A stretch of 49,323 nt of DNA from Patescibacteria group bacterium (GCA_038065125.1 JBBTRP010000038.1:1-49323); one strand, 5' to 3'; shown: positions 6,829-32,630, counted from the first letter of the stretch. Notes: generated by a model not told the origin, from the sequence alone. Translations and numbers: made by a program.

Positions 6829-7161
6829 CTACGACCGATACTCATCTGGCAAGGCCTCGCTGCCAAACAGCTCAACAAACTGTTCTTTTATATCGTAATA
6901 GTGCCTTCGAGCCTGTGCTACCTCGTCTTTTGAAAGTGTTCTCTCTTCGTTTGCCATATCCGCTCGACGGTAGCCCATCAATTCAAGCATGCGATCTTTA
7001 TCGCTCGCTAAGAACTGCGGTTGTCCGCTCGCCTCTTCCTTAAACTCACTGCTTTCGACAACTCGATCGACCCTATCGTCAAAATGCTTTTGAAGTCTGT
7101 CCGGCGGAAGATTTGAGAGCTCGTCACGATAGTGATCTCTGGAGTCTGGGGTTCCTTTCAT
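6829..7161 (-). CDS. Hypothetical small acidic protein
   Basis: Track ORF 6829..7263 is trimmed to the first ATG (MKGTPDS) that does not overlap trailer element B. No recognisable family. Confidence 0.4.
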   Translation of the reverse strand: MKGTPDSRDHYRDELSNLPPDRLQKHFDDRVDRVVESSEFKEEASGQPQFLASDKDRMLELMGYRRADMANEERTLSKDEVAQARRHYYDIKEQFVELFGSEALPDEYRS

Positions 7162-7180
7162 ACGGTTGAGATTATTTTGG

Positions 7181-7421
7181 AGCGGGTAGCGGGAATTCCG
7201 TAGTCGCATCAGCCACTGGCTGATACTCCTGTGTCCTGGGTGTACTCGGAGCGCCACCGGCACTCCTCGCTCGCTCCTTTGACTCCTGCGGCATTCTGCC
7301 TCGGAGTCAGTTCGTCAGGCAGAGCCTGATCCGGCTTCGCCGGACTTACACCCGTCCGATTCCCGAATACTATCTTTTTGAACAAAACTACCCATCCTTT
7401 CGGATGGACACTTTTGTTCAA
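7181..7421 (-). repeat. tRNA-trailer structured element, copy B (behind tRNA-Gly)
   Basis: 16-nt direct repeat 7181-7196 = 7422-7437. 7354-7365 is the exact reverse complement of the T-arm at 7431-7442. It has the core at 7238-7281, a palindrome at 7208-7224 and a long hairpin at 7377-7421. Confidence 0.75.
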
Positions 7422-7493
7422 AGCGGGTAGCGGGAATCGGACCCGCCTCTGCTGCTTGGAAGGCAGCCATAATAACCACTATACGATACCCGC
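7422..7493 (-). tRNA. trnG: tRNA-Gly (UCC), CCA not encoded
   Basis: Acceptor GCGGGTA/TACCCGC, anticodon stem GCTGC/GCAGC with loop CTTCCAA, T-arm GCGGG-TCCGATT-CCCGC. Confidence 0.9.
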
Positions 7494-7494
7494 G

Positions 7495-8028
7495 TTACTT
7501 TTTTTCGTGATGGTCGATGCTGCGATAGGCGGTGATGAACTCCCGAATTTTTGCCTCGTCGAATGATTCGAGTGTAAGTAGTTTCGTCCATGCGGTCAAG
7601 ACGATTGGGGAGGGAAGTTCGGGCTTGATGTAGGGATGCAGTAAAATTTGGTCGTCATAGGTTCCCATGAGACCTTTTAATTTTTCAATATCTTTACTCG
7701 CAATTCTAACGGGATCGTAGTTTATGATAATCCCTCCGTCCTCCATGTTGTGTACGATGAGTTCGTCCGGAACCTGCACCTCAGCAATTCCCCAGGGCGC
7801 TATGCGTGGCAGGTGGGGGCCGGATGTTGGGGGAACGGAGTTGTACGGCTTGTGCGGCGTCGTGATCTCGCGGACGTGCTCATTTCCGAGATCCTCAAAC
7901 ACCGTGCCCGGCCGCGGTTTTGCTTTTTGCTTGGAGATATAGAGAACCGCTCCTGCAATAAGTACAAGGATGATACTCCCTGCAAGAACCGTGAGAATAC
8001 CCCGAATGAGGATGAACTTACGCGCCAT
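7495..8028 (-). CDS. Membrane-anchored DUF3105-like protein
   Basis: N-terminal TM helix. The block YNSVPPTSGPH...WGI...LIVHNMEDGGIIINYDP is characteristic of DUF3105. The start was moved to MARKF so it does not overlap the upstream gene. Confidence 0.65.
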   Translation of the reverse strand: MARKFILIRGILTVLAGSIILVLIAGAVLYISKQKAKPRPGTVFEDLGNEHVREITTPHKPYNSVPPTSGPHLPRIAPWGIAEVQVPDELIVHNMEDGGIIINYDPVRIASKDIEKLKGLMGTYDDQILLHPYIKPELPSPIVLTAWTKLLTLESFDEAKIREFITAYRSIDHHEKK

Positions 8029-8954: not shown

Positions 8955-11900
8955 CTACTTCTTCGTATTTCCCCACGCTGCGTCTGCTCCCGCCATCATG
9001 ATCGTCATGCCGGCGTTCGTGAGCTGTGCGCCCGCAAGGTCGCCACCGAGCTCCTGCGCAGACTCCTGGTCGACAAGACCCTTTTCCGCCGCATACGAGA
9101 TCACTGCCGCGTTGTCTTTAAGGTTGAGATCCGGCGGAGCAATCTTATGCCCTTTGAGGACGTCGCGGATTGCTGTGCCGATCGTCACCGGCTTTGCGCC
9201 AATTTCGCGCAGTTTCTTTGCACTGTCAGTGACGTCATTGAGAACACGGTTGAAATCTTTTCGCGCAACCGGCGCCGTGGGGTTTTTATCAAGTCCCGCG
9301 CACACCGACGCCTTATCATCGACAAGACGTTTTGCGGAAGCCAGAAGCGGATCGCCGACATCAAGCGATTTGCAAGGAGTAATTCCCTTTGCAAACGCTT
9401 CTGTCTTTGATTCTTTCTGGATCGCCCCAAGAGCTGCGGTGAAGCCCTGGGCTACCGCTTCAATCGCCTCGTCAGAGTCTGACTCGACAATCGCGTCAAC
9501 CAGCTCGGCGGTCGCATCAGCTGCATGTCCTGCTGCTGTCGGAGCAAAGAGGTCTCCTTTGATCTTTTCGTTTGCCGCCTCAAGCGCCGTAATAGCTTCG
9601 GGGGAGACGTCACCGGCCTCTTTGAGTTCGCTGATAATTTCTTCGAGGTTTCCCTGCTCATTGACAACCTCCGCGTTCGCGATCAAGAGGGGTGCTTGGT
9701 GTACTTGCGGAGCCATTGCCACGGTCTCCGCTAATCCGACCGCCGCCTGGGGGTTTTGCGCTCCCACATCGGCAAGGGCGTCTGTCGCCTCAGCGCCCGC
9801 CTGTACCAATGCGAGCTTGAGATTCGGCGCAACGCTCGGGTCGACCGCGCCCGCAATCCCATTGAGTGTCTCGATGTCTTCTTCCGCGCTTACTTTATTT
9901 TCTGAGCCCGCACCGAGTGTCGCGTCAAAGGACTGTTTCACGTCCTCCGGAACATCATCAAGCGAAACTCCGGAGTCGGCTGCAATACCCTCAAATCCAT
10001 TCCAGAGGCCCTCGCCTTGTGCGGTAAGTTTTGCACGCTTTGTCTCGTCTTTTTCACCCTTCAGCGATGCGTTGATCTTTTTGATCTCACCGACAAGCTC
10101 TCTGCCGCGCGCCTGGAGGGACTTGGCAAGCGCCCCGACTTTTCCTGCGACAAAGCTTGCCGCCGCCTCCATGCCTTTACCCATGACCTTCACGTGATCC
10201 TTCAGGTCTTCCTTGGCAAGGGCGGTGTCGACTTCCAGTGCTTTCTTTTGGGCCTCAGCACCGAGCTCTTGCTCAAGTGCGTACAGCGCGTTCTTTTGTG
10301 TGGCGTCCTCGGTTTTTCCAATCTCTTCGATTAGGGCCTTGTGCTTTTCCGTAAGGTCGGAAAGACCCTGTGCCGCTCGCGAGGCTGCGCCACCCTCTGC
10401 TTGGGCCGCCTGAATCCGACGATCCCGGATGGCGATTTTTGAGTTGGCGGCTTCCACGTCAGCGTTAATGCGCGAATCGTTTGCAACAACACCTTCCGCA
10501 AGGACCGATCCCCACTGATTTTGAGAAACCTTTTTCCAGTTCGAGTTTATTTTTCCCGTGTTCCCGGAGTCGTTTGCAGCCCCAAGGCTTTCAACGTTCT
10601 TCTTCACGTCCGAGAAGCTGCGTTTCATAGCCGTGGTACCGTATCTTTCCATGAACTCTCCAAATTTCTGCGATCGCTCACTGACGTTGTCGATAAACGC
10701 ACCGCGGCTTGCTGAATCGTACGCCGAATCCAGTTCTCCTGTCTGGAGCGCGATCTCCTCCGCTTTTGGCGCGTACTTCATCATGGTTTCCTGGAGCTTC
10801 TTGCACTCGTCAGACTCCGCGGCATCACCCTTGCACTGGCTTTTGAACTCTCCCGCTTTTTCCAGAGCGATTTTTGCAAGACCCGCACTGGAATCAAAGC
10901 CTACCGGAGGCATCGGGGGAGGGACGCCCTTTCCTTGCTTCTGTGATCCTGGGGTTTTGGACGGCTCGCGCTGCGTGAAGAAACGCGCGGACTGTTCGAC
11001 TTGTCTTGCGATCACGTCCGAGACGGCGGTTCCCGCCTGCTCTGCGGCTGAGCGGACCTTCTCAAGAACCGCTTTCAGCGCATCCAACGATTTTCGCACG
11101 AGATCGAGGTTCTTTTCAGAGAAAGGCGCGTTTGAAAACAGCGTTCCCATATTCTCTCCTACCGTACCCCGATCCTCTGCGCTCATTTTGCCACCCAAAA
11201 ATCTCAATTCGTTCTGGACCCGGTGAAAATCATTCTGGGCGTCAAACACTGCCGGGTTGAAAGTGGTCGCTCCTCCCTCGGTCTGACCCTGGGTAGCGTC
11301 TTTTCCCTGCGGCATTTCCGGCTTTCCTTCGCCACTCTTTGACGGCTGCTCGCCCGCAAGACCTTTTTCTCCTACTCCTTCGCGGGATGTCACGGCAGAC
11401 GTCCCTCGGTTAGAGGATCGACGTGAAAAAAACCTTGCGCTTTCGCTCGGCTTTCCTTCCTGCTCGCTGAAATTAAACTTCTTTGCAACGTCTGATTTCT
11501 GCGCTTCAGACATCTTAGAGGGATCAAAGCCCTTCATGAAACAAGGCTTCTCCGACGTTGGCTCCTGGCCCTGGGCGCACTCGGACATCTGTTTACCCGC
11601 CATGTCCTTGTTCATCATCTCTTTCTTTGCGCCCTGATCGCCCTTTCCATCCGCAGGGCACGGAATGTCTTTACCTTCAGGATTTTTGCAGAAGCGCCGA
11701 TCCTGTCCCTTGTGTTCACCTCCTGCCTTACAGGCGGCGTTGTTTGGATCTGTCTTACAGATTTCCTGCGCTCCGGTCATTCCGGCGCCTTGCTTACACG
11801 CTGGGGTTTCTTTGTTCTCTGGCTTTGAGCAGTCTGGCATCGACTTATTATTCTGATTCTGCGCAGGACAGGTCTGTCCCGCAGGGCAGGCTGCTTGTTG

Positions 11901-16295: not shown

Positions 16296-16299
16296 CTGG

Positions 16300-16510
16300 T
16301 CGGGCTGCTCCCGAATTCCGCTCTCAGGACCGTCCACTGGACGTCAGGCGTTTGCCCGGGGTGTACTCGGAAGTGCCACTGGCACTCCTCGCTCGCTCCT
16401 TTGGCTCCTACGGCTATTCGCCTCGTGCCAGGTCGCTCACACCCGTTCGATTCCCTTTCAAATCCATTAGGGACATGATACTCCAACTTCGTTGGAATCT
16501 CATGTCCCTA
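16300..16510 (-). repeat. tRNA-trailer structured element, copy C (behind tRNA-Pro)
   Basis: 10-nt direct repeat TCGGGCTGCT (16300-16309 = 16511-16520). 16445-16455 is the exact reverse complement of the T-arm at 16521-16531. It has the core at 16358-16402, a palindrome at 16331-16343 and a long hairpin at 16468-16510. Confidence 0.75.
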
Positions 16511-16581
16511 TCGGGCTGCTGGGAATCGAACCCAGTCTACTTGGTCCCAAACCAAGCGTACTACCGGTATACGACAGCCCG
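16511..16581 (-). tRNA. trnP: tRNA-Pro (UGG), CCA not encoded
   Basis: C1-G72 acceptor CGGGCTG/CAGCCCG, anticodon stem CTTGG/CCAAG with loop TTTGGGA, T-arm CTGGG-TTCGATT-CCCAG. Confidence 0.9.
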
Positions 16582-16649: not shown

Positions 16650-18233
16650 CTATGTGTCGCCCGGCTTTCCCGCTTCACGCTCGAGGGAGTCGATGAGCGT
16701 TCGGGTATACTCATTCTCCATAAGAAGCGGCATACTCTTTGTTTTCTCCAAAAGATCGGGGATCGCCTGATGCAGTGGCGGGCGCGTCATCCGTCGAACC
16801 GCCTTGACGACCCAGAACCGATCAAAGGACGCAAGCACCTCTTGAGGGTCATTTTTTACAAGTCGACTCACGAAATGTTGTAATTTTTCTTCGTTGTATA
16901 CCTTGCGGCCATCAATAGTAAGAAGGTGCTCAAAAATCACTCCGACCCCCTCGGGGGTCCACCCTTGGGTTTCAAACACGTGCTGAAGAGCTGTGGTCAA
17001 GTCGGTGATTCGTCGTTCGAAAACATCGGCAAGGACGGGATTTTCTACCGTAATGAGCTGTCCACCCTCTTTATTCTTTTCACGGAGCTTGATGACCCCG
17101 ATTCCGCTTCCGCCTTCTGCGCGAGAAGATACCCGTAAAAGCGGATATACTACTGCGGACGGTTCAAAAATCACCTTCCCGCATGATGAGAGCCGTTCTC
17201 CGAAGCGCGTATCCTCTCCTTTGCCGACCGTCGGGATCCCGTCTGCGAGCGCTGTTTGGTATGCTCGTGCCGACATACTCGGACCGACGGTTTTTGCTTG
17301 CATTTCAAAGGACTCATGAGGCCGTGACCGCTGGTGGAAAAGAGCGTGGTGATACGCAAGAATCAGTTTTTTATAGAGCCCCTGCAGATGCTTCAGCCGA
17401 AAAAGCTCGTCATCAAGGGCGTCTTTGTCGTGCTCCATAATCACCTCGCCGGTCACGCCGATCGCATCCGGTCTTCGGGTGTACGCGTCAATGAGATTCC
17501 TGAGGTAGTCGGGGTCAAGACGCGTGTCAGCATCAGTGTGAGCAACAATCCCGTTGCGGTCGATCTCAAGAAACCGCTCGATTGCCTCTGCGGTTCCTCG
17601 ATTTCGCGCGCCGCCCACATTCGCGACCTCCTCAGGAAGCGTCTTTCCATCAGACGCCTTATCGACAATATGCACCTTCACGCCGTGTTCCTTTAGTAAG
17701 TCAATCGCCTCTCTCTCGTCATCAGAGAGGTCACTGCTGGCTGCTCCGGTTGTGATGTGCGCAAGGATGGAAAGTGTCTCTTGGTTGTCCTGCCGTGCCC
17801 GCAGGAAGTGCTCGCAACGGGAGCGGTACACAGTCTCCGGTTCGTTCTCCAGGCGCGTTGGTGCATGCGTAGGATTATTGACGACAACAATCGCCTCAAA
17901 CTCTTCGGGGGAGGTGCCGCGCTGCTCCGCAAGAGAAGCGAGGAGTCGAAACACATGCTCGCGTTCGCCGTAGGCGGGAATGACGAGCGAAAGAACGCAC
18001 GCGGGGTCCATCGGGATCCCGATTCGCTCTTCAGTCTGAGGAAGATGTTTCTCGACGTATTCGCGAGCGGTCTCTTTAAGGCGTTCCTCCTCTGGAATCA
18101 TGCCGTCGTATCGGGCTGACATATCTTTAACGCGGCAGTACGTCAGAAAGTCGCGCTGCCGCAAAGCGGATGTACTTTTTTTGATCCGCGGCCCCAGTAC
18201 GAGAGGAGGGCATGCGGGATTTGCGAAAGACAA
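16650..18233 (-). CDS. Family-2-like (GT-A) glycosyltransferase, large
   Basis: LVIPAYGE...IVVVNN and DADTRLDPDYL (DxD) motifs. The start codon is uncertain. Confidence 0.6.
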   Translation of the reverse strand: MSFANPACPPLVLGPRIKKSTSALRQRDFLTYCRVKDMSARYDGMIPEEERLKETAREYVEKHLPQTEERIGIPMDPACVLSLVIPAYGEREHVFRLLASLAEQRGTSPEEFEAIVVVNNPTHAPTRLENEPETVYRSRCEHFLRARQDNQETLSILAHITTGAASSDLSDDEREAIDLLKEHGVKVHIVDKASDGKTLPEEVANVGGARNRGTAEAIERFLEIDRNGIVAHTDADTRLDPDYLRNLIDAYTRRPDAIGVTGEVIMEHDKDALDDELFRLKHLQGLYKKLILAYHHALFHQRSRPHESFEMQAKTVGPSMSARAYQTALADGIPTVGKGEDTRFGERLSSCGKVIFEPSAVVYPLLRVSSRAEGGSGIGVIKLREKNKEGGQLITVENPVLADVFERRITDLTTALQHVFETQGWTPEGVGVIFEHLLTIDGRKVYNEEKLQHFVSRLVKNDPQEVLASFDRFWVVKAVRRMTRPPLHQAIPDLLEKTKSMPLLMENEYTRTLIDSLEREAGKPGDT

Positions 18234-18357
18234 TAATCGTCATAGCGTGGCATGACGAGGTCGGTATCTCGGGATGGGACAATCAATTTTTCGCTTCGGC
18301 GAGTAGTCATGGTGGTAGTGTATCTTTCCTATCCTAAATGATTCACGCGTCTCGGAC

Positions 18358-18579
18358 AAGAAAAAACCTCCTTCGGGGGAGGTTTTTTCAATGCCGAGGG
18401 CGAGGATCGGTCTCGCCTCTCGTCGCCTCCCGGCTCCTCGGGCTGACCACCGCCTCGCGGTCCGGCTCGCCACTCTGCGTCGCCGGACATCGCTCCGGCG
18501 TTCGATCCCCGACGCGATCCAAACTGTTGGATCGCTCCCTGGCATAAGAAAAAACCTCCTTCGGGGGAGGTTTTTTCAA
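18358..18579 (-). repeat. tRNA-Phe trailer: 52-nt direct repeat (terminator hairpin plus tRNA 3' end) flanking a 136-nt GC-rich structured insert
   Basis: 18358-18409 and 18546-18597 are identical. The copy continues as a near-complete T-arm (GGCGAGGATCGGTCTCGCC). The insert contains GGATCGAAC, which is complementary to the host T-loop, plus several hairpins. Confidence 0.65.
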
Positions 18580-18889
18580 TGCCGAGGGCGAGGATCGAAC
18601 TCGCGACGCAAGGATTTTCCTTCTGCTTTCTTACGTTTCCGTAAGTGTTGGACTATATCATCACCCTTCTTTCTAGAGAAAGAAGGGGTCGAGCGCTTAT
18701 GCAGGAATATTGTTGAGGCTCACCTGCTAGTCTCTACGCCTTCCAGAAAAACAACGCTCTTTCTGGCTTGGCTCGGAGTTATCACAATTTGACTGGAGAC
18801 TTCTCCGAATTCACCCGATTTTTAATCACACTTTACAGTGTGATGGACCGAAAATTCAGTCCTTCGCTCTACCACTGAGCTACCTCGGC
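18580..18889 (-). tRNA. trnF: tRNA-Phe (GAA) interrupted by a group I intron after U33
   Basis: 5' exon 18889->18858 is GCCGAGGTAGCTCAGTGGTAGAGCGAAGGACT. 3' exon 18619->18580 is GAAAATCCTTGCGTCGCGAGTTCGATCCTCGCCCTCGGCA. Spliced, they give a canonical 72-nt cloverleaf. Confidence 0.85.
18620..18857 (-). ncRNA. Group I intron (IC3-like) in the tRNA-Phe anticodon loop
   Basis: P1 is formed by exon GGACU pairing with the intron guide GGUCC, with a U-G pair at the 5' splice site. The intron ends in G. P6 is CCAGAAA/UUUCUGG and P7 is GACUA/UAGUC. The strings CCGAGCCAAGCC and GGAAGGCGUAGAGACUAGC resemble cyanobacterial tRNA-Leu intron cores as I recall them. Confidence 0.8.
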
Positions 18890-18955
18890 AAAGTGAAAAA
18901 TAGTATACCTTATCGTTATAATCTTTCAAGTATAATAAATCGAACTCGTGGTATA

Positions 18956-19697: not shown

Positions 19698-19774
19698 TGG
19701 TGGGCATGGGAGGACTCGAACCTCCGACCTCTTCATTATCAGTGAAGTGCTCTAACCAACTGAGCTACATGCCC
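19698..19774 (-). tRNA. trnI: tRNA-Ile (GAU) with encoded CCA
   Basis: GGGCATGTAGCTCAGTTGGTTAGAGC...CTGATAA...GGAGGTTCGAGTCCTCCCATGCCCACCA. Confidence 0.9.
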
Positions 19775-19820
19775 ATTAACCTTTGCAAACAATGGAAAAA
19801 TACTACACGGGAATCGTCTC

Positions 19821-20702
19821 TTATGCAAGGTTGCTGACAATTCGTCTAAGATACTCCCCGTAACCGTTTTTACTGTGCTTGTCGACCGCCTTGAGAAGGG
19901 TTTTGGCATCAATGTACCCCAGGGTGTAAGCGATTTCCTCAATGCAGGCGATTTTGAGACCTTGGCGTTTTTCGATAGTGGCGATAAACTCGCTCGCTTC
20001 CAAAAGACTCTCGTGGCTGCCGGTATCAAGCCACGCCGTGCCGCGACCAAGAAGTTCAACACGGAGTTTTTTCTGCTCGAGGTAGGTCCTATTCACGTCG
20101 GTGATCTCAAGCTCCCCGCGCCAGGAGGGCATAACTCCTTTTGCGATCTCAACCACCGAATTATCATAGAAATAGAGGCCGGTTATCGCGTAATTCGACT
20201 TTGGTTCTTTCGGCTTCTCCTCGACAGATACCACCTTTCCGCTCTCATCGAACTCCACGATGCCATATTGGTTTGGATTCTGAACGTAGTATCCAAAAAC
20301 CGTTGCTCCACCGTGAGTCTCAATATCGGTTGCCGCCTTCCTGAGAAGTCCGGTAAATCCGTGACTAAAAAAAACGTTGTCTCCAAGGATCAAGCACACC
20401 GAATCGTCTCCGATAAACTCTTGTCCGAGAATAAATGCTTCAGCAAGGCCGTTTGGCGCGTCTTGCACTTTATAGAAAAAGTTCAACCCCAGATCAGAAC
20501 CGTCCCCGAACAAATCCTGAAAGCGCGGCAAGTCTTGTGGAGTGGAGATCAAAAGAATATCCCGAATACCCGCAAGCATAAGTACCGAGAGCGGGTAATA
20601 AATCATGGGCTTGTCATAGATCGGCAGCAGCTGCTTGCAGACCCCCCGAGTGATCGGGTAGAGCCGCGTCCCGCTTCCACCCGCAAGAATGATTCCTTTC
20701 AT
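19821..20702 (-). CDS. rfbA: Glucose-1-phosphate thymidylyltransferase
   Basis: [18 protein letters not shown]...[31 protein letters not shown] is the canonical RmlA N-terminus. Confidence 0.95.
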
Positions 20703-20826
20703 AGTTTTTTTTGAATAGAAAACAGATCCATTGAAGCATTGTTTTGCCCGATTGTCTACTCTTCATTTGCACATACCTGCCGGGGGAGCGTACACTATAG
20801 TGAAAGACTTCATAATCAACACCTCT

Positions 20827-21411
20827 ATGGACCTCTCTCATCGTGCACAGCACGCATATACGCAGGAACTCGGAACCTTGGTACTCCTTACGGTCGTGTC
20901 CTATGGCACGTACCCGCTGTATTGGTTTTATCGCAATTGGACACACCTCAAGGAGGTCAATGGCCTCTCACTTCGACCGGCCCTGAGAACGCTCGGGCTT
21001 CTTGTTCCGTTCTTGAATATTTTTCTCATCGCCCAGCAACTGCAGCAGATCCGTGAACTCTCCGGCACCGCAGAGCAGAAGGTATATTACCCGTCGGTAT
21101 GGGTGACGATCGGTCTTCTGGCCCTGGGGTACTTGTGGGTCGGGTATACGATTGTTGCGATCGCGATGTTCTCAAGCGAGGTTCCCCCGACAAGCCTGGA
21201 GGCAGTGAGCGCACTGGTTATCGACCTATTCATGGCACTACTTGTCGGACTCTTACTCGCCGCGCCTCAGCGCGCGCTCAATAGCTATTGGCACACTCAT
21301 CATAAAGATCGCTCTCAAGCGTTAGGCTTAACTCCCGGTGAAATCGCATGGATTGTCATCGGCGGCATGGTCTGGACACTCTCCCTCGCGCAAGGATTTC
21401 TCTTTGGCTAA
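20827..21411 (+). CDS. Membrane protein, DUF4234-like
   Basis: Four hydrophobic helices and YGTYPLYWFYRNW, which is typical of DUF4234. The start is at 20827 or 20731. Confidence 0.5.
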   Translation: MDLSHRAQHAYTQELGTLVLLTVVSYGTYPLYWFYRNWTHLKEVNGLSLRPALRTLGLLVPFLNIFLIAQQLQQIRELSGTAEQKVYYPSVWVTIGLLALGYLWVGYTIVAIAMFSSEVPPTSLEAVSALVIDLFMALLVGLLLAAPQRALNSYWHTHHKDRSQALGLTPGEIAWIVIGGMVWTLSLAQGFLFG

Positions 21412-21431
21412 CGCTCAACCCTGTTGTTCTG

Positions 21432-23024
21432 TCATAGAACCTGGTAAAGAGTTACCTCGCGGTTCTGATACACATTTTTAAGAAAGGAATAATTCTCGGG
21501 AGAAAAATCACCTGGAATTTTTTCATAAAAAGAATAGAATACGTAGCTGATTTTTTCTTTTTTGAGAAATTCGTGCATCGTGTTCTGGCTGTCACGCCCT
21601 TCAAAAATTGCGTACGCCTGCTTTCGCTTTCTGTCCAAATCAAGCGTCAAAAGCCAATGCCCGATAAATACTCTTCGATTAGAAAAGTATGGAATAACAT
21701 TTCCGTTAACCATTGATGAAAGAATGATGCTTTCATTTTTTGTATGAACCGACAGCCACCGCATCGCCTCGATATTTCCGTTTGGCAAAAAGGGGCTGCT
21801 AACGCGAGTCGCGTCGCTGTGATAGCGCACAAGGAATCTTTTCCATGATGCGACGGCGGGACCCGCGAAGATTCCAACAACCACCAGTGTGATCGCGCTG
21901 ACAAGAACCGTATCACGCATGAGAGATCCCGATCGATTTCTCCATCTCGTCAGTACCTCAAAAAACAGGCTCATCCCGTAGCTTGCGCCAATCGCGACCG
22001 GCAAGATAGTTGTCGCTTCAAAAAGACGTGTTTTCTGCGCGATCGGCAGACTATACATGAGGAGCATGCCGCACGCGAGCGTACACGCGGATGCTCGTCC
22101 ATCGTCATGCCGCTGGAGCGATCGAAATCCAATGATAAAAAAAATCCATAGTCCTCCAAAGCCCGTCAGAAGCTCGGGGATACTATATGCTCGTAGCACG
22201 CCGTGCTGAGAAATCGCCAGGGGATGATCGGAAAGCCCGATCAACGCCATGACGATAAAAGATGGCAGAGAGATCGCGAGGAAGAGAAACGCATGAAGCG
22301 CGATTTTTTTTCTCTCGCTCGGCAGAGACAGCATGCGCTCGACAACCAGTACGCCGGCAAGGGCAATGAGAAGAATTGAGTAATACGGCAACACGATATT
22401 TAGGAGCGCCACGCACATTCCAGCAACTGCCATGCGGAGACATCGCGTCTCTCTTCCGTACAAAAAACAAAGGGTTGCCGCGAACACGAAAAGGCTGTGC
22501 GCCAACATAAAGTGTGGGAAGTCGGCAAAACGAAGGAGCGATGTTGTGCCGGGCCAGACACGTACAGCGAATGGCACTATATACCCGATCCCTCCGGCAA
22601 AAAAAGTGAGCAGATATGCGTATCTGCGTACGCGCAACGAGCGAACGAGACTCCTAGTGCAATAAATCGAAGCGGCCATGAAGAGTAGTCCGAACGCATA
22701 CCGGGCGATGTGGAAGGTTTTTTCAATAGAGAGGCCGGCGATGCGCGAAAGATGCCCGAGCGAGAGATAGAATGGATGATAGAACAACGGCGAATGCTCT
22801 TCCGTGGTGAATGGGTCGACGGAGAGCCACTTCCCCTCAAAACCAGCGCGCATTTCCGTGAGGTAAAAGGAGAAATCCATCGAAATGGTCGGAAGACCAA
22901 CGTATGTCACATCCTCAACTGGATGCGTTGCTCGATAGAGATCTGGCGCGAGATTCCAGAGAAAAGCGATCAACGCCAAAACGATTACGAATTTTTTTTC
23001 TGAAATCTTTTGCATAGACTTCAA
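21432..23024 (-). CDS. Polytopic membrane protein (possible GT-C type glycosyltransferase)
   Basis: At least 12 hydrophobic helices followed by a soluble C-terminal domain. No confident family assignment. Confidence 0.6.
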   Translation of the reverse strand: MKSMQKISEKKFVIVLALIAFLWNLAPDLYRATHPVEDVTYVGLPTISMDFSFYLTEMRAGFEGKWLSVDPFTTEEHSPLFYHPFYLSLGHLSRIAGLSIEKTFHIARYAFGLLFMAASIYCTRSLVRSLRVRRYAYLLTFFAGGIGYIVPFAVRVWPGTTSLLRFADFPHFMLAHSLFVFAATLCFLYGRETRCLRMAVAGMCVALLNIVLPYYSILLIALAGVLVVERMLSLPSERKKIALHAFLFLAISLPSFIVMALIGLSDHPLAISQHGVLRAYSIPELLTGFGGLWIFFIIGFRSLQRHDDGRASACTLACGMLLMYSLPIAQKTRLFEATTILPVAIGASYGMSLFFEVLTRWRNRSGSLMRDTVLVSAITLVVVGIFAGPAVASWKRFLVRYHSDATRVSSPFLPNGNIEAMRWLSVHTKNESIILSSMVNGNVIPYFSNRRVFIGHWLLTLDLDRKRKQAYAIFEGRDSQNTMHEFLKKEKISYVFYSFYEKIPGDFSPENYSFLKNVYQNREVTLYQVL

Positions 23025-23053
23025 TTTTTACATACCGGTTGCTCGTCCGCAAC

Positions 23054-23084
23054 AAAAAAACCACCCAATAAAGGGCGGTTTTTT
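23054..23084 (-). terminator. Rho-independent terminator immediately downstream of the 16S rRNA unit
   Basis: On the minus strand it reads ACCGCCC TTTATT GGGTGGT followed by TTTTTTT. One pair is G-U only in this orientation. Confidence 0.55.
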
Positions 23085-23085
23085 A

Positions 23086-23106
23086 TCTTTGACTCTTAAA
23101 AGCGAT
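23086..23106 (-). promoter_or_regulatory. 3' strand of the long-range 16S precursor (RNase III-type) processing stem
   Basis: TCTTTGACTCTTAAAAGCGAT pairs with 24835-24856 over 21 bp, with a single bulged nucleotide. Confidence 0.5.
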
Positions 23107-23237
23107 CCAAGCCTGAACTCAACAGCTCAATTCCGGTTTTTTTACTGAATCTGTGTGTGTCGCTTTAGGGGCGACTCATACAGCATCGACCAGTGTTGAA
23201 ACACGATTTGTGAAAACCGCATTTCGAATTCTCCCTA

Positions 23238-24745
<1,508 letters not shown>

Positions 24746-32558: not shown

Positions 32559-32630
32559 TGGACCTAGCGAGAATCGCCAGGCAGAGCCTGGTCCGCCTTT
32601 GGCGGAAACTCCTAATTACAAAACTTTCAA
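32559..32630 (-). repeat. Short tRNA-Ala trailer ending in a degenerate duplicate of the tRNA 3' end
   Basis: On the minus strand, CGATTCtcgcTAGGTCCA (32576->32559) compares with the tRNA's CGATTCccggTAGGTCCA. Two small hairpins lie between them, and a separate terminator hairpin (32517-32561) follows. Confidence 0.45.

Follow-up and report, generated by a model that had tools for sequence, protein, structure and literature searches.

The region downstream of the tRNA-Gly(UCC) gene of an uncultured CPR/Patescibacteria bacterium raises the question of what kind of sequence can lie between two copies of the 3' end of one tRNA while carrying, in addition, an inverted copy of the T-arm of that tRNA. 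The window, that is, the whole stretch of 49,323 nucleotides analyzed, is a chromosomal segment encoding DnaA, DnaN, PolA, SMC, a class A PBP, YidC, and 16S rRNA. According to lineage-specific proteins, its closest named relatives are Candidatus Uhrbacteria and Kerfeldbacteria MAGs; searches for homologues of the DUF3105 protein and of a glycosyltransferase indicated a thinly sampled lineage, with MAGs of these two groups as the nearest informative relatives. Groundwater assemblies yielded contigs near-identical to the window. All seven tRNA genes detected by ARAGORN and an intron-split tRNA-Phe gene are located on the minus strand, as are the elements of the window described below.

The tRNA-Gly(UCC) gene (7422–7493) is intact and contiguous and has no encoded CCA (ARAGORN; Rfam tRNA model, 58.8 bits). 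Its positions 58–73 (ATTCCCGCTACCCGCT, 7422–7437) constitute the proximal repeat, after which the next bases are TTG and not CCA. The same 16 nt recur downstream (plus-strand form AGCGGGTAGCGGGAAT, 7181–7196 = 7422–7437); read on the tRNA strand, the distal copy of positions 58–73 (AUUCCCGCUACCCGCU, 7196–7181) is followed by CCA (7180–7178), so that the distal repeat with CCA occupies 7178–7196. This CCA was absent from the initial annotation, whose coordinates and sequence strings for the locus were all correct on re-examination. A near-perfect, terminator-like hairpin of 44 nt (hp1, 7378–7421; −24.4 kcal/mol, z = −8.2), with GUUUUGUU after the stem, begins at N73+1 and was flagged by the terminator scan (match 7410–7389). 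It is followed by a spacer of 12 nt (7366–7377) and by the segment CGGGAATCGGAC (7354–7365; CGGGAAUCGGAC at 7365–7354 on the tRNA strand), hereafter anti-T, which is the exact complement of tRNA positions 53–64, the C55 variant included; its plus-strand form GTCCGATTCCCG is accordingly the exact reverse complement of 7431–7442.

Between anti-T and the distal repeat lies a folded region (7353–7197). The 5' strand of helix P2 (GGGTGT, 7348–7353) pairs with ACACCC (7238–7243), and the P3 hairpin (UGACUCC...GGAGUCA) occupies 7280–7309. The conserved core (7238–7279) comprises AAAGGAGCGAGCGA, helix P4 (GGAGUGCC-GGU-GGCGCUCC), GAGU, and the P2 3' strand ACACCC; the stretch 7238–7281 is common to 1946–1989 and 16360–16403. 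The palindrome ATCAGCCACTGGCTGAT at 7208–7224 forms hairpin P5 (AUCAGCC-AGU-GGCUGAU), and the right junction GCGACUACGGA (7197–7207) terminates in CGGA, which is invariant in all copies and, together with the repeat, forms GGAATTCC across the junction. The variable region had been described as three hairpins; these exist and consist of one hairpin shared by the family, P3, and a nested 30-nt two-hairpin module (TCCGGCGAAGCCGGA TCAGGCUCUGCCUGA, 7315–7344) that corresponds to an alignment gap in the four other family members and has a solitary copy (85% identity) after tRNA-Ala (32574–32606). The ATG of the next gene (ORF 6829–7161, 110 codons) is located 16 nt past the CCA and, as had been claimed, 20 nt past the repeat. 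The chance expectations of a 16-mer repeat within 300 nt and of a 12-mer inverted match within 100 nt are <1e-5, and the same layout is present in all five members of the family, so chance is excluded as an explanation of the layout at tRNA-Gly.

This family consists of five copies, each after another tRNA, from three or more genomes, with identical internal boundaries; the architecture of the tRNA-Gly copy (copy B) is repeated in copy A, as proposed initially, and extends to copy C and two metagenomic copies. Copy A (1885–2095) follows tRNA-Trp (2096–2168), carries the anti-T AGAGGAATCGAAC along with a repeat of 21 nt, and scores 184 bits with the covariance model. Copy C (16297–16510; 142.5 bits) follows tRNA-Pro (16511–16581); in its distal repeat, the T-stem strand is degenerate and the acceptor strand and CCA are intact. 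The metagenomic copies were found after tRNA-Leu(CAA) (L004) and tRNA-Glu(UUC) (L005). The alignment of the five copies spans about 160 positions, of which the conserved core (P4 and the unpaired junctions) has 90–98% identity among all copies; the 21-nt block AAGGAGCGAGCGAGGAGTGCC shows no difference between the three window copies and the tRNA-Glu copy, and the tRNA-Leu copy departs from it by one substitution (AAGAAGCG...). Copies within the genome are mosaic; for example, P3 of copy B is 97% identical to that of the tRNA-Glu copy, and its P5 is unique. These copies are only 76–81% identical to one another, so no recent burst is indicated. A protein-coding element was rejected: no reading frame is conserved, since the ORFs over copy A and the tRNA-Glu copy are in different frames and the tRNA-Leu copy has an early stop. 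Six further assemblies of this species contain copy B at 99–100% identity and thus gave no sign of polymorphism in the population; neither a polymorphic empty site nor an excised form was seen in them.

Scanning 185,579 species genomes with the core pattern revealed no true copy (two chance matches, both in coding regions), and the same scan of metagenomes recovered the two true copies and one chance match. Nothing real was found in viral contigs, and blastn against phage and plasmid collections gave no match. No Rfam 15 family covered the element at the gathering threshold, and cmscan of 7100–7520 at E ≤ 10 reported only the tRNA and a sub-threshold GA-cis match (17 bits versus a gathering score of 34.7); a true group I intron at 18629–18867 was detected by the same Rfam run over the whole window. 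Genes for a recombinase, transposase, or reverse transcriptase were found neither in the element nor in the 49-kb window nor beside the metagenomic copies, and no recombinase domain was detected in the window or flanks. Literature searches turned up no description of such an element.

The initial annotation regarded the element as a trailer of the tRNA. This origin is contradicted by the syntenic Uhrbacteria locus (L009, MAG GCA_016206155.1), in which the gene order is the same as in the window (DUF3105, tRNA-Gly, tRNA-Cys, PolA, FolD, tRNA-Trp, and a TPR protein) and both tRNA-Gly and tRNA-Trp agree with those of the window in T-stem and acceptor stem, encode CCA, and have no element. The former tRNA ends in ...GGTTCGATTCCCGCTACCCGCTCCA / ...ATTCCCGCTACCCGCTCCA, and the latter in ...TTCGATTCCTCTACCCCCCGCCA, followed by a terminator; the covariance model finds nothing anywhere in this locus. 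For closer relatives (protein identities of 74% and 86%), the contigs break off no more than about 45 nt past the DUF3105 gene and are therefore uninformative on the element. In copies B and C, CCA is present after the distal repeat and not after the intact tRNA-Gly and tRNA-Pro, and CCA is encoded by tRNA-Cys and tRNA-Ile of the window, which have no element. Given the empty sites in the relative and the retention of CCA on the distal repeats only of B and C, the simplest reading is that the inserted unit extends from A58 through the constant CGGA and that it brought in a new 3' end and hairpin and displaced the original end. The proximal repeat of copy B would thus be an element-borne replacement of the tRNA 3' end, and the distal repeat the displaced original 3' end of tRNA-Gly.

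A terminator-like hairpin beginning at N73+1 separates tRNA and element in all five copies (17–20 bp, z from −6.7 to −8.8), with sequences unrelated between copies; co-transcription of tRNA and element is therefore not a given. Distal repeats are decayed in two cases, after tRNA-Pro and tRNA-Ala, and in both the changes are confined to the T-stem strand. Since this decay spares the acceptor strand, there are hints that the distal copy may be more than a mere relic.

The proposal that both ends of the element follow the respective host tRNA, rather than a common ancestor, was borne out by the whole family. Anti-T is complementary to 11–13 nt of tRNA positions 53–65 in the Trp, Gly, Pro, Leu, and Glu copies, exceeding in each of them the constant, near-universal T-stem GG by 1–3 nt, and A58 is the first base of the distal repeat in all five (other cargo types begin at C56 or G57). 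A start fixed within the T-loop and a variable 3' extent are familiar from integration at this position of tRNA genes. The repeat comprises 16 nt in copy B, 18 nt in the tRNA-Glu copy, 21 nt in copy A, and at least 55 nt in the tRNA-Leu copy, where it takes in the entire terminator and reaches the contig end; this long repeat may reflect tandem units. The T-loop of tRNA-Gly(UCC), TCCGATT, carries U55C at a position that is almost universally conserved in tRNAs (the Uhrbacteria orthologue has TTCGATT and CCA), and the anti-T of copy B bears the G matching this unusual C55. The co-variation noticed earlier is real, although it amounts to a single event, with an estimated chance of roughly 1 in 30 given one change per side.

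Several known classes of elements were rejected on these features. MITEs have element-specific terminal inverted repeats and a target duplication of fixed length; here, the inverted termini are host tRNA sequence and copy-specific, and the duplication length is variable, as given above. IS110/IS1111 elements with a bridge RNA possess a DEDD recombinase gene beside the guide RNA and a 2-nt core duplication; the present element has no ORF, and its duplication is at least 16 nt. A bulge-helix-bulge intron of the archaeal type was discarded because the genome is bacterial and the motif is absent. Reverse transcription primed by tRNA with a stop at m1A58 does not fit the repeats, which pass the discriminator into the trailer in copy A and in the tRNA-Glu and tRNA-Leu copies and in no case carry a post-transcriptional CCA, and an IS91-type GTTC target would leave the duplication unexplained. 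Group I or group II introns and known small ribozymes had no covariance model match at E ≤ 10. As in T-loop integrative elements, the repeats are copies of the tRNA 3' segment starting inside the T-loop, an intact tRNA at one end is combined with a displaced 3' end at the other (CCA of B and C), and empty sites occur in a relative (tRNA-Gly and tRNA-Trp of Uhrbacteria); an integrase gene was not found in the element. It is best described as a putative tRNA T-loop integrating element of a new type, structured and without genes, that is so far limited to a narrow CPR lineage.

The five copies share a predicted fold in which P1 closes the structure, P2 encloses hairpins P3 and P4, and P5 is the palindrome hairpin. 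Among the 45 predicted pairs, standard pairing was observed in 96% of cells across the five copies, and both sides were changed in 13 pairs, as compared with 4.5 ± 1.6 in shuffles; only 0–3 double-change pairs were obtained in controls with the partner slid by 1–3 columns. Covariation was concentrated in P3 (double changes in four of the seven outer pairs) and in P5 (seven of the ten pairs across copies); the changes in the palindrome arms are thus compensatory, as had been suggested, and those in the second hairpin likewise. This pattern of substitutions indicates that the fold is under selection. A fold on the tRNA-sense strand, also anticipated in the initial annotation, is favored by nine G-U cells versus one A-C cell, which is modest evidence because five of the nine G-U cells come from one invariant pair. 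In P1, the 5' part of anti-T (CGGGAAT in copy B) is predicted to pair with the distal repeat, at positions 58–65, leaving a bubble opposite positions 53–57. When the full transcripts of tRNA and element were folded, anti-T was instead predicted at all five loci to pair with positions 53–65 of the live T-loop, and the distal 3' strand to close the acceptor stem. Comparative analysis demonstrates the insertion, its layout, the replacement of the tRNA 3' end, the matching of both ends to the host, and the conservation of the fold, and the question becomes what the folded part does.

One answer would be a structured RNA serving the host, derived from the trailer or independently transcribed, which pairs with the T-arm of its own tRNA, mimics tRNA at its 3' end, and regulates tRNA maturation, folding, or stability, so that the repeats would be functional mimicry and not insertion scars. 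The conserved fold with its compensatory changes and invariant junction nucleotides, the excess of G-U pairs on the tRNA-sense strand, the integrity of the distal acceptor part even where the T-stem part has decayed, and the change in the anti-T of copy B that matches U55C are all consistent with such an RNA, and the pairing of anti-T with the live T-loop in all five minimum-energy transcripts keeps an RNA-level role under consideration. However, the orthologous tRNA-Gly and tRNA-Trp of a related genus have no element, only some tRNAs have it, each copy lies behind a strong hairpin of terminator type, and no consistent promoter was found for it; moreover, a CCA after the distal copy is restricted to cases in which the ancestral tRNA would be expected to encode one, and unrelated cargos occupy the same position in other tRNAs. 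A host-serving RNA therefore appears unlikely to us.

Distal copies of the 3' end starting in the T-loop were identified for six of the nine known tRNAs of the species (Trp, Gly, Pro, Phe, Ala, and Ser), with three types of cargo of about 55 to 620 nt. The anticodon loop of tRNA-Phe(GAA) (18572–18890, minus strand) is split by the group I intron at 18629–18867 (Rfam Intron_gpI, 76.5 bits), and the gene is missed by ARAGORN. It is followed by a second element family (18351–18604, minus strand), a GC-rich folded insert of about 120 nt flanked by a 66-nt repeat of the tRNA 3' end and terminator (92% identity), which has its own T-loop complement (GGGGAUCGAAC / GGGGATCGAAC) with a G-U pair kept; the distal T-loop is altered to ACCGATC. 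After tRNA-Ala (32559–32629, minus strand), the 30-nt two-hairpin module of copy B occurs alone and precedes the degenerate repeat CGATTCTCGCTAGGTCCA, which has two changes, both in the T-stem strand, and an intact acceptor strand. Past the right end of the window, in the same species, tRNA-Ser(CGA) (L021, 4260–4985, minus strand) precedes a non-coding, AT-rich filler of about 620 nt, which contains, in inverted orientation, a 3' fragment from another tRNA (GGTTCGAATCCCTTCCGGGTA, opposite strand) and terminates in a related, GGCGAGC-rich module (GGCGAGCGATGGCGAGCCGAG) and a 19-nt repeat of the tRNA-Ser end.

Similar arrangements were detected in the Kerfeldbacteria MAG GCA_016204585.1 (L018), where tRNA-Gln (9600–9760) has a 53-nt insert directly after it, flanked by a 36-nt repeat from A38 in the anticodon loop. 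Another copy of the tRNA-Gln 3' end, from G57, is located 1.9 kb downstream (11560–11645), with a glycosyltransferase gene in between, and is immediately preceded by the core CAGAGTGGCGAGCCG, which resembles that of the second family. The T-loop and the anticodon loop are the two classic crossover positions of tRNA-integrating elements, and these starting points, here associated with very small cargos, correspond to them.

The element could also be read as a decayed scar of a larger island, the functionless residue left between attL and attR after deletion. Remnant-like neighbors, such as the degenerate repeats after tRNA-Ala and tRNA-Pro and the 620-nt AT-rich filler after tRNA-Ser, together with the absence of a mobility gene, are in line with it. 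Against it are the five copies with the same internal boundaries and a fold kept by compensatory substitutions, on which independent deletions would not converge, and a core conserved at 90–98% although the hairpin arms have turned over. As an account of the element, decay is highly doubtful.

The reading we favor, which we hold at about even probability, is that copy B is an approximately 240-bp gene-less insertion cassette in the T-loop of tRNA-Gly, a miniature, non-autonomous counterpart of tRNA-integrating islands and prophages. The inserted unit would extend from A58 of the seemingly intact tRNA through the CGGA at 7197 and would bring a replacement 3' end (58–73, without CCA), the terminator-like hairpin, and a folded module of about 185 nt, with the original 3' end and its CCA pushed downstream as the distal "direct repeat". 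The folded module would open with the 12–13-nt anti-T directed against positions 53–65 of the host tRNA; together with the distal repeat (P1), anti-T could rebuild a duplex T-arm half-site on one strand or, alternatively, in the integrated state, pair with the live tRNA T-loop. Movement would presumably proceed by Campbell-type recombination within the 58–73 segment, with an enzyme supplied in trans, and anti-T may serve in recognition of the target or site on a single-stranded (RNA or DNA) form; the excised circle would then have the junction ...GCGGA|ATTCCCGC...hp1. Weighing against an insertion cassette are the negative results for a recombinase gene and for an excised or polymorphic form, the limited identity of the in-genome copies, and the sparing of the acceptor strand in the decayed repeats. 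Moreover, a unit whose 3' end is specific for one tRNA is not readily transferred to another, which leaves the origin of five host-specific versions unaccounted for, and several helices combined with invariant unpaired nucleotides resemble a functional RNA more than a recombination site.

A classification of integration by tRNA "sublocations" was reportedly given by Williams in 2002. Textbook integration at tRNA genes involves kilobase-sized islands with their own integrase. The present element resembles prophages and islands integrated at the T-loop by tyrosine integrases, such as mycobacteriophage Ms6 at tRNA-Ala (PMC1762012), in its T-loop crossover, replacement 3' end, displaced repeat, and empty sites; it differs from them in its size (about 240 bp instead of kilobases), in having no integrase or other gene, in its multi-helix fold and T-arm complement, and in the occurrence of one family at five or more tRNAs. 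In integron attC sites and the CTX attP(+) hairpin used by XerCD, structure is conserved over sequence, and paired inverted parts rebuild a mismatched duplex site. By analogy, the P1 duplex over positions 58–65 with its bubble opposite 53–57 may be comparable, as may the inverted arm located just inside one junction after integration; in contrast to these sites, the element is predicted to form a junction of five helices instead of a simple hairpin, and its target is the tRNA T-arm. The tRNA 3' external transcribed spacer RNAs, e.g., 3'ETS-leuZ of E. coli, are structured RNAs encoded on the tRNA strand immediately after the tRNA, a position shared by the element, whereas they are not insertions and contain neither a copy of the tRNA end nor a T-arm complement.

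A segment complementary to the insertion site and varying with the target is also known from group I and group II intron guides and from IS110 bridge RNAs, although the element matches no intron model, has no IS110-type recombinase, and, unlike them, has a target duplication of at least 16 nt. On another reading, the element would be a self-propagating structured RNA or ssDNA element that finds tRNA genes by base pairing, its core catalyzing or scaffolding insertion at 57/58. The 13-nt segment would then read the target's T-loop together with the 3' strand of its T-stem, and the matched U55C would be a footprint of the element–target heteroduplex; we regard such guide-directed propagation as distinctly unlikely.

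A further possibility is an intron-like mobile ribozyme of a new class, in which anti-T would act as an internal guide aligning the 5' exon (G53–G57) with the distal 3' exon (A58–C65), and read-through transcripts would be spliced or reverse-spliced at 57/58. The 13-nt segment is indeed a continuous complement of 5 nt of the upstream exon and 8 nt of the distal copy, in the order 5'-(3' exon part)(5' exon part)-3' that group I guides use; the core of about 150 nt has multiple helices and conserved junctions, and the true group I intron in tRNA-Phe shows that self-splicing elements are present in the tRNA genes of this genome. However, no Rfam group I, group II, or small-ribozyme model matched even at E ≤ 10, the putative 5' splice site lacks a U-G pair, the "intron" ends in A and not G, the tRNA is complete without splicing, and a terminator-like hairpin lies inside the putative intron. 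A ribozyme is thus a very improbable identity.

Under the favored reading of an insertion cassette, a gene-less unit of about 240 bp does an island-type job at the same position, repairing the tRNA it interrupts, with versions tailored to at least five tRNAs, a strongly selected fold, and a target-complementary segment. If the fold acts in targeting or recombination, this would be a minimal, programmable tRNA-directed insertion system; guide-directed propagation would imply a new class of guide-directed mobile elements specialized on the most conserved hairpin in biology, and a working RNA would represent a family not described so far, from CPR bacteria, of which the non-coding RNAs are, to our knowledge, almost unknown. 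The rebuilt 3' ends in six of nine tRNA genes also affect tRNA annotation, conclusions on whether CCA is encoded, and the breaking of contigs in assemblies of CPR genomes. Gene calling is touched as well: long ORF calls begin within the elements, at GTG 16337 (minus strand) in copy C (a 358-codon ORF) and at GTG 7263 (minus strand) in copy B, the latter sharing its frame with ORF 6829–7161, and gene callers may over-extend downstream genes into both elements.

Several observations concern the surrounding genes. The 16S rRNA gene (23239–24745, minus strand) is followed by protein genes instead of 23S, and no 23S rRNA was reported across the whole window. The genes after 16S (region 19698–24745, minus strand) are a 530-codon ORF without a family match and RmlA, with tRNA-Ile 3.4 kb off. 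The top homologues of RmlA (glucose-1-phosphate thymidylyltransferase; 19821–20702, minus strand) are from Nitrospirota (75–79% identity) rather than from CPR, which suggests that this gene was horizontally acquired. Finally, the Uhrbacteria locus carries a diversity-generating retroelement (bAvd accessory protein and reverse transcriptase, 16907–18289) between PolA and FolD, which the window does not have.
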